Below, one piece after another: positions 1,554 through 21,505 of a stretch of 64,000 bases of DNA. Origin of the DNA: Chloroflexota bacterium (GTDB lineage Bacteria > Chloroflexota > UBA6077 > FW602-bin22); contig SCUE01000007.1 of assembly GCA_004297775.1 (NCBI GenBank), forward strand, positions 258,861-322,860. Reading direction: 5' to 3'. Below the pieces are notes generated by a model. The model was not told the DNA's origin and ran no database searches. It saw only the letters and a program-made list of their open reading frames with translations. A program made the position numbers and the translations under genes. Within the stretch, counting starts at the first letter, position 1, and every line of letters starts with the position of its first letter.

Positions 1554-2427
1554 AACCGGCGGCTTCGTTCGACCACTCGTCCTGTACGGCATTCTGATCG
1601 TGGCGTCGATCGCATTCATGATTCCATTCGTCTTCGCGGTTGGAACATCGCTGAAGCCGTTCCACCTGCTGCACGTATTTCCACCGCTCCTCCTTCCTCC
1701 GCTCGACGAGGCTCAATTCAGCAACTACTGGCGCATTTTCAACGTTCCGTATGTACCGTTCACGTCGTTTTATGTGAATACAGTCATCATCACCCTCGCG
1801 TCGATGCTTGGCGCAGTGCTCACCGGTACGGCGTCGGCCTACGGGTTCGCGCGATTCCGATGGCCGGGGCGCGACTTCTTTTTCGGCGTCCTCCTGGCGA
1901 CCCTCGTGCTGCCCGAGGAAGTCGTGATTATTCCGAAGTTCCTGATGTTTCACCTGATTCCGGATGCCCTCTTCGGCAAGACCTGGATCGACACGTGGTG
2001 GCCGCTGATCGTCCCGTCCTGGTTCGGGGGAGGCGCGTTCGCCGTGTTCCTACTCCGCCAGTTCTTCATGCAGATTCCGCGTGAATTGGACGAGGCCGCC
2101 GTCATCGATGGCGCGAACACGTGGGACATCTTCTGGAGCATCATCATTCCGCTCTCGAAGCCGGCTCTGGCGACCGTCGCGATCTTCTCCTTCCTGGGCC
2201 ACTGGAACGACTTCATTCACCCGCTCATTTACCTCAACTCGACCGAAATGTTCCCGCTTTCGGTCGGCTTGCGCTGGTTCCAGCAGCAGCCGACGGATCC
2301 GATCGAGCCACGCGAGAACCTGTTGATGGCTGCCTCGGTCCTGATGATTACGCCCGCGCTGCTCATCTTCTTCTCGATGCAGCGCTACTTCGTCCGCGGA
2401 ATCGTCATGACTGGAATCAAGGGCTGA
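1543..2427 (+). CDS. Carbohydrate ABC transporter permease (MalG-type)
   Basis: 'ELDEAAVIDGA', 'WNDF', C-terminal 'QRYFVRGIVMTGIKG'. Confidence 0.95.
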   Translation: MTARTGGFVRPLVLYGILIVASIAFMIPFVFAVGTSLKPFHLLHVFPPLLLPPLDEAQFSNYWRIFNVPYVPFTSFYVNTVIITLASMLGAVLTGTASAYGFARFRWPGRDFFFGVLLATLVLPEEVVIIPKFLMFHLIPDALFGKTWIDTWWPLIVPSWFGGGAFAVFLLRQFFMQIPRELDEAAVIDGANTWDIFWSIIIPLSKPALATVAIFSFLGHWNDFIHPLIYLNSTEMFPLSVGLRWFQQQPTDPIEPRENLLMAASVLMITPALLIFFSMQRYFVRGIVMTGIKG

Positions 2428-2488
2428 TCGATCCGCGCGATCGAGTATCCCTGGCGAGCGTTCCATCGAGGGGGCTAAGGTCAGCGCC

Positions 2489-3160
2489 ATGGCAATGATT
2501 TCGGAACGCGATCGGGAATACATCCGCCAGCATTTCGCCGAGAAGTTGACTGACGACGTCACCCTCGAGCTGTACACGCGACCCAAGCCACGCCTGCACG
2601 TCCCCGGTCGTGAGGCGTGCCTGTACTGCGCGGAGACGCGACAACTCGTCGAGGAGGTCGCGGATCTTTCCGATCGCGTCAACGTGGTCGTTCACGACGT
2701 GCTGGAGGAACCGAACGCCCTGGCCGATGCCGGAATCAGCGAGATTCCAGCCCTGGTGTTCAAGGGCAAGAACAAGGGAACGGTCCGATATTTCGGGATA
2801 CCGGCCGGCAACGAGTTCCGGAACCTGATCGACAATATCGTCGGTGTCGCCTCGGGCGAGAGCGGACTATCACTCGAGACCGAGGCCGCGCTGGCGACGC
2901 TCGCAAAGGATGTCCATCTACGCGTCTTCGTCACGCCCACCTGACCCCACTGTCCAGGGGTGGCCAGTCTGGCCCACCGAATGGCGATCGCCAGCGAACG
3001 CGTCACGGCCGATGTCATTGAGGCGAACGAATTCGCCGATCTATCGGATCGCTACGCCGTGCAAGGCGTGCCGAAGATTGTGATCAACGATCGGCGCCAG
3101 ATCGTTGGCTCCCGACCCGAAGCTGCCTTTCTGGCGGAGGTCCTCGCGGCGGTCGAGTAG
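2489..3160 (+). CDS. Selenocysteine-containing protein disulfide oxidoreductase (two thioredoxin folds, AhpF-NTD/PDO-like), Sec at TGA 2942-2944
   Basis: ORFs 2489-2944 and 2960-3160 share a frame; readthrough gives FVTPT-U-PHCP; N-terminal CLYC; cis-Pro loops 'IPAL' and 'VPKI'. Confidence 0.9.
2959..2978 (+). promoter_or_regulatory. Putative bacterial SECIS hairpin
   Basis: GGTGGCC-AGTCT-GGCCCACC stem-loop with one bulged C, starting 14 nt after the UGA; loop resembles the E. coli fdhF SECIS loop AGGUCU. Confidence 0.75.
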
Positions 3161-3195
3161 ACTGTCGCGAGCCTTCATTCAGGAGACAAGACGAC

Positions 3196-4416
3196 GTGAC
3201 AACGACGCGCGCGGTTGATTTCCGGACACTTCTCTCGACCCGAGCGCAGATCGGCCAGACCGCGCGCGGCACGATCGCCTCGACGACCCGCACCGTCCTC
3301 ACCCCGCTCTACGAGTTCGGCGGCGGGCGCCCCGACCCCGGCTCGTTCCCCTATGACGGCTTGGTTGACGCGACGGCCCGCATGATGAAGGAGGAGGGCG
3401 CCGACGCCCTCACTTACGGCGACGCCCTCGGCTACGCCGGCTTGCGCGACCTCGTGTGCCACAAGTACGAGCTCTTCGAGGGTCTCAAGGTCGAGCGCGA
3501 CAACATCCTGATCTCGAATGGTTCCAGCCACGCGCTCTCACTCGCGATCAGCGCGTTCGTCGACACCGGCGATCCGATGATCTGCGAGTCGCCGACTTTC
3601 TCGGGCACGCTGTCCACGATTCGACGGCATGGCCCGGAAGTGATCGGCGTCCCGGTCGACCGCGAGGGCATCGACACAAATGCGCTGCGGGAGAGGCTGG
3701 AAGCGTTGTGGCGAGCCGGCCGGCGATGCAAGCTCATCTACACGATCGTCAACTTCCAGAATCCTTCCGGTCCGACGATGACGATGCGGCGACGCCACGA
3801 GCTGCTGGCGCTGGCCCGCGAGTACGAGACTATGATCCTCGAGGACGACGCTTACGGCGAACTCCGCTTCGAGGGTGAGCAGCATCCATCGCTCTACGCG
3901 CTGGATGACTCCGGCTCCGTCATCCGGTCTGGCACCCTGTCGAAGATCCTCGGCGCGGGCGTCCGCCTCGGCTGGCTCTGCGCACCGAAGGATCTGGTCC
4001 CGGTCATGAACAGCTTCAACTTCGGTGGCGGCGTCAATCCGTTCATGTCTCGTGTGGCGACCTACTATATGCGCGACCACATGCCGTCGCACGTCGCGCT
4101 GCTGGTCGACGTCTATCGCAACAAGCGCGATGCAATGCGCCGTGGCCTTCTCGAAACGCTCGAAGGCACCGACGCGGACGTGAATAAGCCGGAGGGCGGC
4201 TTCTTCCTCTGGATCAAGCTGCCGACCGGGACCGATCGCGAGAAGCTCGCGACGCTCGCCGCCGAGGCGCGCGTTCAGTACGTTCCCGGCGGGTCGTTCT
4301 ACCCGAACGGGGGCGGCGAACGGTACATCCGGCTCGCCTACAGCTACGAGTCGGTCGAGAAGTGCTATGAGGGCGCGCGCTTGCTCGGCAACGCTATTCG
4401 CGGCGCGATGAGCTAG
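3196..4416 (+). CDS. PLP-dependent class I aminotransferase (LysN/MocR-enzyme-like)
   Basis: 'NFQNPSG', 'EDDAY', PLP-lysine motif 'GTLSKILGAGVRLGW'; RBS AGGAG. Confidence 0.92.
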   Translation: MTTTRAVDFRTLLSTRAQIGQTARGTIASTTRTVLTPLYEFGGGRPDPGSFPYDGLVDATARMMKEEGADALTYGDALGYAGLRDLVCHKYELFEGLKVERDNILISNGSSHALSLAISAFVDTGDPMICESPTFSGTLSTIRRHGPEVIGVPVDREGIDTNALRERLEALWRAGRRCKLIYTIVNFQNPSGPTMTMRRRHELLALAREYETMILEDDAYGELRFEGEQHPSLYALDDSGSVIRSGTLSKILGAGVRLGWLCAPKDLVPVMNSFNFGGGVNPFMSRVATYYMRDHMPSHVALLVDVYRNKRDAMRRGLLETLEGTDADVNKPEGGFFLWIKLPTGTDREKLATLAAEARVQYVPGGSFYPNGGGERYIRLAYSYESVEKCYEGARLLGNAIRGAMS

Positions 4417-4889
4417 ACGCCAAGCACCTGGATCACGATTTCGCGCGGGCGGGGGCCGTCGAGTTCGACGAAGAACACACGCTGCCACCGCCCGAGTTGC
4501 AGGTCGCCGCCGACAATTGGAATGCATTCGCTCGCGCCGACCATCAGGCGCTGACAATGAGCGTGTCCGTTGACGCGCTCGTTCGGCTCGACATTGACCG
4601 TTCGGACGGTGAGGTCGTCGTGCATGTAGGCGCGGCCACGCGGCGCAAACTCTTCGAGCCGGCGGCGCAAGTCCTCCAGTAGGAGGGGCTCGGCCTCATT
4701 GATCATGACGCCGGCCGTCGTGTGCGACGCGTAGACAATTGCCATTCCGTCGCGAACGCCGGAATCGCGCGCGAGCGCCTCGACATCGGCGGTCACGTCG
4801 ATGAAGTCGGTCGGACGAACGGACAGCACCGGGATTCGACGCGACCGCGTCTGGAATGCCGCCATCGACCGCGTGCTCGCCTCAGTCAT
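4413..4889 (-). CDS. yjbQ: YjbQ/UPF0047 family protein
   Basis: 'HTTAG..INE', 'NGHAH', 'LGRWQRVFFVELDGPRPR'. Confidence 0.9.
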   Translation of the reverse strand: MTEASTRSMAAFQTRSRRIPVLSVRPTDFIDVTADVEALARDSGVRDGMAIVYASHTTAGVMINEAEPLLLEDLRRRLEEFAPRGRAYMHDDLTVRTVNVEPNERVNGHAHCQRLMVGASECIPIVGGDLQLGRWQRVFFVELDGPRPREIVIQVLGV

Positions 4890-6813: not shown

Positions 6814-8007
6814 CTACCGGCTGGCGGAGCGCCCAGGCTGACGCACGCGGTACAGAGCATCCGCGACGACGTGCGCGTCGGCGTCGCTCAACTCGCGAAC
6901 GTCGATTCGCGCGGTCCACGGATCGAACCCCGGCATGATCGCGACCGGCGGATCCCCGGCCAGCAAGCGCGCGCAGAGATCCGCCGCGGTCACGCCCTCA
7001 TCCCGATCGAGCGTGAGGTGGACAGTCGGAAACGCTCGGCCCAGATGATCGCGCGCGACGAACTCGACCTCGGCGTCGGGCAACGCGACTAGTTGATCGT
7101 GCAGCCAGACCGTGCGCCGTTCGGCCGCGCGCCCGGCGGCGCGATGATCGCGCGCGACCCAGTGCTCGATCGCCGCGACGAGGCCGATCATCTCTTCCTT
7201 GCTCACTTTGCAGACACGGCCGATGCCCTGGGTCGGCGACGCTTGCGCGCGCGCCGCCGCGATGAGGTCGGCTCGGCCGGTCAGGAAACCCGATCCCTGG
7301 GGACCGCGCAGACCCTTTCCGCCGCTGAACGCGACGAGATCGGCGCCCGCGTCGGTGAATCGATGCAGGTTCTCGGGCGGCGGCAGCGTATTCGACGCGT
7401 CGATCAGGATCGGCACGCCATGGCGCCGAGCCAGGCCGATCACCTCCTCGGGCGACGGCGCATCCGGCGGATCGACGCCCATCCAGTAGATACCGACCGT
7501 CTCGGGAGTGATCGCCGCGTCGATGTCGTCGAGCGTCACGCCACTCGCGGTGCCAACCTCATCGAAGACGCCGCCGGCGCCACGCACCGCGTGCGCGTAG
7601 CCGTGATGGGTGAACTCTTCACCATCCGCGACACGCCGCTCCATCCGGCGAGCGACCCAGCGATGCTTCATCCCACGCGTATCCGGCAGCCGCGCCGATA
7701 GCACCGGATGTCCATTTGTCATGACCGCGGCCGCGCCGACCATCAACCCGGCGGCGCATCCGGACACGATGTAGCTCGCCTGGCCGTGCGTGTGGTGCGA
7801 AATCCGATCCGACGCCGCGTCAAGCAACTGTCCGACATCGACGTACGCGTCGACCGCCCGACGCATCGCGTCGGCGACCACCGGAAGGATCGATGCGCCC
7901 CCGAACCTGGTCCAGTGACACGTCGCGTTGATGACGCGACGCACGCCAAGCGCGGCGTACACATCGATCTCATCCCCGAGCACGGTCGCCGGCGCCAGGA
8001 GTTCCAT
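6814..8007 (-). CDS. SelA-like/DgaE-family PLP-dependent enzyme
   Basis: 'RRVINAT', 'FSGGKGLRGPQGSG', 'IGRVCKVSKEE'; lacks the SelA N-terminal tRNA-binding domain. Confidence 0.85.
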   Translation of the reverse strand: MELLAPATVLGDEIDVYAALGVRRVINATCHWTRFGGASILPVVADAMRRAVDAYVDVGQLLDAASDRISHHTHGQASYIVSGCAAGLMVGAAAVMTNGHPVLSARLPDTRGMKHRWVARRMERRVADGEEFTHHGYAHAVRGAGGVFDEVGTASGVTLDDIDAAITPETVGIYWMGVDPPDAPSPEEVIGLARRHGVPILIDASNTLPPPENLHRFTDAGADLVAFSGGKGLRGPQGSGFLTGRADLIAAARAQASPTQGIGRVCKVSKEEMIGLVAAIEHWVARDHRAAGRAAERRTVWLHDQLVALPDAEVEFVARDHLGRAFPTVHLTLDRDEGVTAADLCARLLAGDPPVAIMPGFDPWTARIDVRELSDADAHVVADALYRVRQPGRSASR

Positions 8008-8061: not shown

Positions 8062-8913
8062 CTATTCGCTCGGACGATTCCGGCGGAAGAACTCCTCGAC
8101 GCCGCGAACGACATCCTCGGCTGGCGGCAAGGGCTCGATAGGCCGTGCACTCGCTTGGTCGTCGGGCGCGGCGCTCGCCTCGCTCGCGGATGACGACTTC
8201 TGGTCCGACTTCGCGATCGCCCGCGTCACCTGCTTCTCGAACGCGATCGCGGCGTCGTCGAGCTCGGCCAGATCAAGCTCCAGCTCGATCACATCACTGA
8301 TGACACGGAGAATCGCCGCGCACGCCTTCGGATTCGGCATCGCACCCGTGTAGTGCGGAATTGCCGCCCAGACGCTCAGGCACGGAATGTCCTGCCGAGC
8401 CATCTCGTCGGCGATCGCCGAGTGGATACTCGTCGGTCCCTCGTAGCCGCTCAACTGCACGCCGAGAGCTTCCAATCGGGCGCGCAGCTCCGGCGTGGTT
8501 GCGAACCCGGTCAGGAAGACCGGGCCAGTATGCGGGACGCTCGCCAGAAACGCGCCAATGAGAATGACCGGAGCCGCGCCGCCTTTCTCGCGCCACGCCG
8601 TGGCCACGCGCTGCGCGAACGACCGCCAGCGCAGCTGTGGCTCGGGACCAAGGAGGACCAGCGCATCGCGGGCGCCGCCCGAAGCCACCATCAGCGCCAG
8701 CGATGGCCACTGGATCCGGCGGTCGCCATCCGAGCCAACGCGCACCCAGGGCCGCGTCTCGGTGAGAACGAAGAACTCTTCGGGGTCGAATTCGATCTCG
8801 CGACGCGTGTCACGCTTCTGAATCAAGAAGGCAGCCGTCGTCGTAGCGACGCTGCTGGCGTCGCCCCAACCACTGAACGCCGCGACGAGATAGGGATCCG
8901 TCCAACGATCCAC
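8062..8913 (-). CDS. PAC2 (proteasome assembly chaperone) family protein
   Basis: 'AAFSGWGDA', 'GPEPQLRW', 'VPHT', 'YEGPT', 'WAAIPHY...PNPKA'. Confidence 0.9.
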   Translation of the reverse strand: MDRWTDPYLVAAFSGWGDASSVATTTAAFLIQKRDTRREIEFDPEEFFVLTETRPWVRVGSDGDRRIQWPSLALMVASGGARDALVLLGPEPQLRWRSFAQRVATAWREKGGAAPVILIGAFLASVPHTGPVFLTGFATTPELRARLEALGVQLSGYEGPTSIHSAIADEMARQDIPCLSVWAAIPHYTGAMPNPKACAAILRVISDVIELELDLAELDDAAIAFEKQVTRAIAKSDQKSSSASEASAAPDDQASARPIEPLPPAEDVVRGVEEFFRRNRPSE

Positions 8914-20200: not shown

Positions 20201-20577
20201 TCAAGGGGATACCGTACCTACAGTTGGCGGTTGAACACTGGTCAATCGCGCTCGAGTTCTATCGCGATCTGCTCGGGTTGCCGATCGAACAGGTACTCGA
20301 ATCGGAGCAGTGGGTTGCGTTTGATCTGGCTGGGGCGAAGCTCGTGATTTACGGCGGCGGTATCGGATCGGATCGCCCGAAGGGATGGGATCGAAACGCC
20401 TTCATCCCGAACGTCGAATGCGATGAGATCGAGGCGACCGTCGCCGAACTGGTGCGCCGGGGCGTGCCCTTTGTCGCGCCGCTGGCGATTCGTCCCGACG
20501 GATACAAGGTAGCCACCTGCGTCGATCCGGAAGGCAATCGAATTCAACTCTTCGAGTGGACAAGGACTAATGAGTAA
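20197..20577 (+). CDS. VOC/glyoxalase family protein
   Basis: 'EFYRDLLGL', 'DPEGNRIQL'; GTGA overlap with the previous gene. Confidence 0.88.
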   Translation: MIKGIPYLQLAVEHWSIALEFYRDLLGLPIEQVLESEQWVAFDLAGAKLVIYGGGIGSDRPKGWDRNAFIPNVECDEIEATVAELVRRGVPFVAPLAIRPDGYKVATCVDPEGNRIQLFEWTRTNE

Positions 20578-21505
20578 CGACAGCCGCAACATCATCATTC
20601 TTGGCTCGGGGCCGGCTGGCCTGACGGCCGCGATCTACGCGTCGCGGGCGGCATTGGAGCCGCTTGTCATCGCGGGCGCACAGTCCGGCGGCCAACTCAT
20701 GCTGACCTCCGAGGTCGAGAACTACCCGGGCTTCCCGGAAGGCGTCGAAGGGCCGGAGCTGATGCGTCGGTTTCGCGAGCAGGCGGAGAAGTTCGGCGCC
20801 GAGTTCATCGACGACGACGCCGTTTCGGTCGATTTCCAGAAACGCCCGTTCGAAGTCACGACATCGGGCGGCACGCGCCGCGGCCAGGCGGTCATCATCG
20901 CGACCGGGGCATCGGCAATCTGGCTCGGTCTCGAATCGGAAACGCGTCTGCGCGGTCGAGGTGTTTCGAGTTGCGCCACCTGCGATGGATTCTTCTTCCG
21001 GGGCAAGGAACTGGTCGTCGTCGGAGGCGGCGACACCGCGATGGAAGAGGCGACCTTCCTGACGCGCTTCGCGACCAAAGTCACGATCGTGCATCGCCGC
21101 GACGCGCTTCGCGCGTCGAAGATCATGCAGGATCGCGCGATGAAGGATCCCAAGATCTCCTTCATCTGGGACAGCGAGATCGTCGAAGTCCTCGGCAAGG
21201 ACAGCGTCGAGGGAGTGAAACTTCGTAATGTTCGCACCGGCGCACGGCGCGACTTCGACACTGGCGGTGTCTTCCTGGCGATCGGCTACCGGCCGAACAC
21301 CGATTTCCTCACGGGCCAAATCGCCCTCAACGAGAAGGGGTACATCGTGCCACTTGCCGACACGGAGACGCAGACGAACATCCCCGGAGTCTTCGTGGCC
21401 GGTGACGTCGAGGACTTCCATTATCGTCAGGCCGTAACCGCGGCCGGCGCCGGTTGCAAAGCCGCGCTCGACGCCGAGCGGTATCTGGCGTCACTCGAAG
21501 ACTAA
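20570..21505 (+). CDS. trxB: Thioredoxin-disulfide reductase
   Basis: 'GSGPAG', 'CATCDG', 'GGGDTAMEEA', 'HRRD', 'YRQAVTAAG'. Confidence 0.97.
   Translation: MSNDSRNIIILGSGPAGLTAAIYASRAALEPLVIAGAQSGGQLMLTSEVENYPGFPEGVEGPELMRRFREQAEKFGAEFIDDDAVSVDFQKRPFEVTTSGGTRRGQAVIIATGASAIWLGLESETRLRGRGVSSCATCDGFFFRGKELVVVGGGDTAMEEATFLTRFATKVTIVHRRDALRASKIMQDRAMKDPKISFIWDSEIVEVLGKDSVEGVKLRNVRTGARRDFDTGGVFLAIGYRPNTDFLTGQIALNEKGYIVPLADTETQTNIPGVFVAGDVEDFHYRQAVTAAGAGCKAALDAERYLASLED

Follow-up and report, generated by a model that had tools for sequence, protein, structure and literature searches.

A stop codon inside a protein disulfide oxidoreductase gene of a Chloroflexota bacterium is almost certainly decoded as selenocysteine

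Introduction

Does the TGA codon that interrupts a redox-enzyme gene in an uncultured Chloroflexota lineage end the protein, or does it encode a residue of the active site? The gene lies in a 64,000-nucleotide stretch of DNA, which is referred to here as the window. Its reading frame opens with ATG at 2489, meets a TGA at 2942-2944 and ends with TAG at 3158-3160. Translated with the TGA as selenocysteine (Sec, U), it gives 223 residues with two redox motifs, CLYC at positions 44-47 and TPT-U152-PHC155. Our comparative sequence analysis indicates that the stop codon is almost certainly decoded as Sec, which would yield a full-length enzyme. The gene is a real, ordinary addition to a catalogued selenoprotein family, TIGR02187. 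Its main features are listed here.

2489..3160, + strand: gene of a 223-residue protein disulfide oxidoreductase (PDO, TIGR02187) with two thioredoxin folds and one Sec codon predicted to be read through
2618..2629, + strand: N-terminal redox motif C44-L-Y-C47, aligned to the N-terminal CQYC of the P. furiosus PDO
2942..2944, + strand: predicted UGA Sec codon, U152 of the C-terminal U-P-H-C155; TGA or Cys in homologs
2959..2978, + strand: candidate bacterial SECIS hairpin within the coding sequence, with a 5-bp core at 2962-2974 and a G-U-C loop 22 nt past the UGA
3196..4416, + strand: PLP-dependent aminotransferase (class I/II, MocR-like core), 35 nt downstream of the PDO gene

Results

Annotation and gene neighbourhood

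The original prediction remarked that annotation pipelines often split such genes, and the NCBI nr entry is indeed the 151-residue product, as are the NCBI and Logan entries; our look-up of the full form had C in place of U and was blind to U-bearing records. An annotation fix is in order: the 151-residue database protein is without the C-terminal catalytic site. The window neighbours (an ABC permease upstream, the PLP aminotransferase downstream, and YjbQ) are conserved within the family only, the aminotransferase being kept in just three same-family genomes. A scan of 2000-4600 for promoters and terminators found none, and no RNA data set is listed among the sequencing runs that hold the gene. 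The window also encodes a PAC2-family protein (8062-8913, − strand). Three same-family genomes and eight other Sec loci of one related family likewise have a PAC2 homolog close to the PDO gene, probably a case of shared gene order.

Family membership and fold

The read-through protein matches the TIGR02187 model (PDO_seleno_TRX) with 238.8 bits against a cut-off of 185, over residues 6-220, and it is the only protein of the genome to score above that cut-off. The motifs required by the family are all present: an N-terminal CxxC, a C-terminal (C/U)PxC, and Pro87 and Pro195 of the two folds. An AlphaFold2 model based on 43 aligned sequences (pLDDT 95.6) consists of two tandem thioredoxin folds, and Foldseek superimposes it on the P. 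furiosus PDO (1a8l) with a TM-score of 0.90 and an rmsd of 1.8. Because the match covers residues 6-220 and the model contains both folds, a score over the curated cut-off is sensible for the read-through product only. Across the 43 aligned rows P87, P153, C155 and P195 are invariant, and the column of U152 always holds either Cys or TGA. In the alignment with Cys-containing PDOs, U152 falls on the leading Cys of the C-terminal CPYC in the P. furiosus and P. horikoshii proteins, the very place where the original prediction had put the TGA, namely the first Cys of a second CxxC. An AhpF identity (an N-terminal domain plus a TrxR-like domain, about 520 residues) was considered and rejected: the protein has 223 residues with the stop at 3160, and it scores far below the cut-offs of TIGR03140 (60 bits versus 503) and TIGR03143 (86 bits versus 688).

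Conservation of the TGA codon

We searched 61 genomes (the host and 60 relatives; matches with E up to 1e-20) and found a homolog in 31 of them, 36 copies in total. A single TGA occupies the site in 30 copies from 29 genomes, and the other six have Cys. The TGA copies in relatives share 41-74% protein identity with the window protein, and Cys is the sole alternative. The N-terminal CLYC-site motif is kept in 27 of the 30 Sec copies. In a wider scan, confined to the best 80 of 441 confirmed loci, 49 had U and 31 had C; among these 80, U copies extend beyond Chloroflexota to Blastocatellia, Rokubacteria and others. Forms with Sec at both sites were absent from all 116 copies. Four genomes (G010, G018, G022 and G025; loci L059-L062) carry both a Sec PDO and a separate Cys paralog, and G053 has two Sec copies (L049 and L058).

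Could the TGA nevertheless be a true stop, marking a split or decaying gene that leaves a 151-residue N-terminal piece and perhaps a 66-residue restart from GTG 2960? Such a restart frame does exist, the nr entry is the short product, and TGA is the commonest stop in this genome, ending 917 of 1958 coding-like ORFs, with RF2 present and over its cut-off. These points are outweighed by the conservation of the codon as TGA in 30 copies, the most distant at 41% identity, all of which keep an intact fold downstream and a frame free of further stops. The 66-residue product would be without UxxC. We consider a true stop very improbable.

A sequencing or assembly error hiding a TGC or TGT is a legitimate worry for a metagenome bin (96% complete, 7% contaminated), yet 28 further genomes contribute 29 more copies with the TGA. 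Contigs of public runs bear on it as well, the codon being checkable in X1 and X3. X1 has 0 differences over 901 bases and is possibly the source itself. X3 has 41 differences over 2471-3299 with no A>C or A>T anywhere, so its codon is neither TGC nor TGT. The TGC or TGT at 2942 that the original prediction had named as the sign of a misassembly thus occurs in none of the 30 TGA copies and in neither contig, and an error of this kind is next to impossible. Both the family match and this codon conservation support the initial proposal of a single 223-residue Sec enzyme with CLYC and UPHC sites.

The SECIS hairpin

A hairpin with an AGUCU loop had been proposed to begin 14 nt past the UGA; its position and loop are confirmed, AGUCU corresponding to an A-U closing pair around a GUC loop. 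The bacterial SECIS consensus, as given in a 2026 review (PMC13188914), comprises a loop of 3-9 nt, a stem of 4-16 bp, G in the first two loop positions (N1-G-[G/U]-N-N2), a distance of 16-37 nt from the UGA and a minimum free energy of −7.5 kcal/mol or lower. Compared with it by hand, the hairpin has the loop A-G-U-C-U at 21-22 nt from the UGA, an 8-bp stem, and an energy of −11.6 kcal/mol for +13..+39 (−6.2 for the 5-bp core alone). In one of five segments tried (2942-2990) the minimum-energy fold is a different structure, and against shuffled sequences the energy is unremarkable in all five (z from 0.00 to about −1.1); excess stability over chance is no criterion of the published model.

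What lifts the hairpin above chance is comparative, codon-level evidence. Among relatives, the 13-nt core is found at the same distance from the UGA in 30/30 Sec copies and in 0/6 Cys copies. The combination of UGA, 17 nt and the motif occurs once in the 4.0-Mb genome, and the motif alone 28 times. Of 69 four-fold-degenerate columns, the three with the least variable third positions are those of the stem residues 158, 159 and 162. Residue 160 is Ser or Arg, encoded exclusively by AGT (9) or AGG (21), and AGG is otherwise rare in these genes (19 of 383 Arg codons); both the Ser/Arg and the Leu/Met/Val swaps preserve the letters of the hairpin. With the peptide fixed, synonymous codons would by chance give the core in 0.6-1.7% of genes, figures that cannot be multiplied across relatives, which are not independent. 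Synonymous sites past the codon are constrained in TGA copies only, which is a further argument against a true stop.

The association extends to the wider set, where, within the best 80 of 441 loci, the exact core is present in 33/49 U and 0/31 C copies. After removal of duplicates (13 rows dropped from 116 copies, leaving 67 Sec and 36 Cys) we built a quick tree. A G-(G/U)-N tri-loop closed by four pairs is found in 55/67 Sec and 0/36 Cys copies, this strict core being absent from 12/67 Sec copies; with a relaxed tri-loop core the counts are 56/67 and 6/36. An independent-pairs test of the relaxed core against Sec gave about 3.7 of 5 pairs with the association and 0.1 against, five pairs being too few for significance. 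Two Cys copies, L046 (G048) and L063 (G058), branch from within the Sec copies of the quick tree and have no SECIS core. They are probable Sec-to-Cys reversions with SECIS decay; no selA or selB was found in one of the hosts (80% complete), and the other keeps both. Taken together, these patterns make a strong case that the SECIS element is under selection in the Sec copies.

Selenocysteine machinery

Sec decoding requires selA, selB, selC and selD, a check proposed at the outset, and all four are present in the genome, over their cut-offs.

contig C12:26039: selA, 553 bits
contig C19:102260, the window's contig: selB, 296.7 bits
contig C24:137307: selC (tRNA-Sec), 74.4 bits, anticodon UCA, 97 nt
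contig C24:170823: selD, 394 bits, itself interrupted by an in-frame TGA

The same data bear on a different decoding of UGA, as Trp or Gly across the whole genome, or as Cys. Cysteine insertion at Sec UGA codons does occur under selenium limitation, a point in favour of a Cys reading for which nothing direct is seen in this genome. Genome-wide recoding is contradicted by TGA ending about half of the genes and by an RF2 over its cut-off; moreover, the sole UCA-anticodon tRNA at default stringency is the 97-nt tRNA-Sec, and the aligned column holds nothing but Cys or TGA. Recoding of either type is accordingly extremely unlikely.

Sec copies occur in 29 genomes, the host included, and 26 of these have a selB that scores over its cut-off. 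As selB is common in the set overall (52/61), its co-occurrence with Sec is only weakly discriminating. Neither selA nor selB was found in two of the 29 Sec-copy genomes, G009 (88% complete) and G053 (85%), and in G022 (76%) selA is present with selB under cut-off; incompleteness may explain these cases. G048 (80% complete), which has only a Cys copy, likewise yielded neither gene.

The window gene is one of at least nine candidates in this genome with a UGA at a Sec motif. Eight others are listed here, each with a possible SECIS-like hairpin.

C2:80305, − strand: FdhA with in-frame UGA, over family cut-off
C12:185515, − strand: SelW/Rdx CxxU with in-frame UGA, over family cut-off
C30:13360, + strand: TxxU BCP with in-frame UGA, below family cut-off
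C7:177298, + strand: Prx-like UxxC with in-frame UGA, below cut-off
C5:132830, + strand, and C7:160892, − strand: DsbA/DsbG-like UxxC with in-frame UGA, both below cut-off
C6:145029, + strand: UGSC protein with in-frame UGA, below cut-off
C24:170853, + strand: in-frame UGA of SelD

The genome-wide Sec scan served as a source of leads only: it is noisy, it missed both the window gene and selD, and of its 112 candidates 17 were picked by hand, 12 of which proved to be adjacent genes or matched nothing. A SelA-like PLP enzyme lies in the window itself (6814-8007, − strand). It is of the DgaE / TIGR01437 type, below cut-offs, and scores 35.8 bits with the selA model; although easily confused with selA, it was rejected as such, the true selA being on C12. 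Two further SelA-like paralogs are on contigs C3 and C4.

Discussion

Proposed mechanism

We picture the protein as a cytoplasmic thiol-disulfide oxidoreductase of the PDO type, with Sec as the attacking residue of the C-terminal site. SelB, carrying GTP and Sec-tRNA, would bind the SECIS loop, which lies within the reading frame 22 nt downstream of the UGA, and thereby place Sec152, a step that we strongly infer. Insertion would compete with RF2, and a truncated product of 151 residues is to be expected when selenium is short. By analogy with Cys PDOs, the Sec152 selenolate would attack the substrate disulfide and Cys155 would resolve the intermediate, leaving a selenenylsulfide. The latter would be re-reduced by NADPH through a TrxB-type reductase. 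The N-terminal CLYC site may be auxiliary, contributing isomerase activity or serving as an electron relay.

Reductant and physiological role

Thiol-disulfide oxidoreductase activity with a thioredoxin reductase as reductant is predicted from Cys homologs. The window contains a candidate for the latter.

20570..21505, + strand: thioredoxin reductase TrxB with a CATC motif; TIGR01292 396.2 bits, cut-off 343.45

The genome has three full-length TrxB-like genes, of which only this one is over the TIGR01292 cut-off, and two classical thioredoxins. The original prediction had suggested that it might reduce the Sec enzyme. The idea is biochemically plausible and finds no backing in genomic linkage: the two genes are 17 kb apart, and a TrxB occurs in the flanks (up to 5-8 kb) of just 3 of 83 homolog loci, all of them Cys forms. 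No sel genes were found in these flanks either (0/83 loci). In the draft assemblies G001-G003 the best TrxB is on a contig other than that of the PDO. The window TrxB is our best guess by elimination only: the C7 protein is fused to a glutaredoxin and has a neighbouring thioredoxin of its own, within an island that resembles those for metal resistance, and the C6 gene is downstream of the UGSC gene. We therefore regard this housekeeping enzyme, with modest confidence, as the most likely NADPH-linked reductant.

The two other TrxB-like genes are at C7:161528 and C6:146400. Island L144 (C7:158500-166000) encodes a MerA-like reductase with a metal-binding N-terminus, an ArsR-like regulator, a thioredoxin and the glutaredoxin-TrxB fusion, along with a UxxC DsbG-like selenoprotein candidate, a CcdA-like membrane protein and a methyltransferase; gene names beyond the Pfam and NCBIfam matches were read off the sequence. 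At L145 (C6:144738-147326) a UGSC-family gene split at a UGA is directly followed by the TrxB-like gene, possibly a dedicated reductase of the UGSC selenoprotein.

According to PMC7465337 and PMC7278568, the C-terminal site of SsPDO has the thiol-transferase activity, and an NADPH/TrxR/PDO system regenerates Bcp peroxiredoxins. The most likely role of the Sec PDO would be to stand in for thioredoxin, recycling peroxidases of the BCP/Prx type and protein disulfides in general. BCP genes of this genome lie at C19:238746, C6:54404 and, in the TxxU form, C30:13240. Gene neighbours at other loci hint at a peroxiredoxin substrate. At 3 of 7 Rokubacteria-clade loci a UGA-bearing Prx gene is located just downstream of the Sec PDO. 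Eight loci of one related family have an AhpC/TSA-domain gene divergent from the PDO (two were checked with Pfam). At the Rokubacteria loci L115 (5660-6140), L118 and L127 (1960-2360), a Sec PDO without the N-terminal CxxC is followed by a Prx-like gene with T-G-G-U or T-P-G-U. Whether a peroxiredoxin is a main substrate is, in our estimate, an even call.

Sec decoding may be right and the role still different. The enzyme's main activity might be PDI-like, with disulfide isomerisation or chaperoning in the cytoplasm, or its electrons might come from a reductase other than the window TrxB. Cys PDOs are described as oxidases, reductases and isomerases in vitro in PMC1188242, and isomerase activity is said to need both sites in PMC7465337; the window copy has both. 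Two additional full-length TrxB-like genes and two thioredoxins are available in the genome. The C7 reductase is a poor candidate, being fused to Grx and accompanied in its island by a Trx of its own. Isomerase activity is in any case not the family-wide function of the Sec form, because the N-terminal CxxC is lost in 15/67 Sec copies. We hold such a role or partner to be a serious, if less probable, option, and retain the TrxB-reduced thioredoxin substitute as the working model.

The loss of the N-terminal site is itself uneven. It affects 15/67 Sec versus 1/36 Cys copies (that Cys copy being beside a Sec copy) in about six events. The independent-pairs test of Sec against this loss is null, with five pairs, about two with the association, one against and two uninformative. 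It is conceivable, though unlikely, that the Sec PDO of non-thermophiles is shifting from a two-site isomerase to a one-site reductase, similar to the AhpF N-terminal domain, that feeds Sec-peroxiredoxins in a Sec-to-Sec relay. Such a relay would fit the UGA-bearing Prx genes of the Rokubacteria-clade loci and the unlinked TxxU BCP of the present genome. The window copy itself retains both sites.

Comparison with known systems

The TIGR02187 UxxC family is catalogued as a predicted, not experimentally verified, selenoprotein (PMC13188914) and was represented by two genomes in 2006 (PMC1794560), which bears out the initial statement that PDO-like proteins are known as UxxC selenoproteins. The window protein shares with that family a score over the cut-off, a single Sec, the UxxC arrangement and a bacterial SECIS. 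We found no difference of kind; what differs is the host, an uncultured Chloroflexota lineage, and the truncated public annotation. Our search of the literature, mostly outside subscription journals and leaving supplements aside, found no experimental study of a Sec-containing PDO. Its SECIS is of the consensus type and close Sec/Cys pairs number in the dozens, which would make this gene convenient for a first verification of the family and for asking what Sec contributes to a two-site PDO.

PMC1188242 and PMC7465337 present PDOs as exclusive to thermophiles. By contrast, the homologs found here come from bins of Chloroflexota, Blastocatellia and Rokubacteria, a comparison by taxon and not by growth temperature. 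Whereas the older picture is one of Cys PDOs of thermophiles, in these Chloroflexota the Sec form is apparently the usual one, occurring in 29 of the 31 homolog-bearing genomes.

The AhpF N-terminal domain (1zyn, 5h29, 6il7) has the same double-thioredoxin fold (TM 0.79-0.84) and uses its C-terminal redox motif only. The window protein, in contrast, stands alone, with no fused reductase and with two redox motifs. Closest in structure are the Cys-type PDOs of P. furiosus (1a8l), P. horikoshii (1j08), A. aeolicus (2ayt/2ywm) and A. pernix (2hls), together with the biochemically studied SsPDO. The window protein aligns with Cys PDOs over the full length and has the same two fused thioredoxin folds and two redox motifs (E 1e-37 and TM 0.86-0.90 for the structurally solved ones). 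It differs from them in a nine-residue insert before the N-terminal CxxC and in Sec replacing the first Cys of the C-terminal motif.
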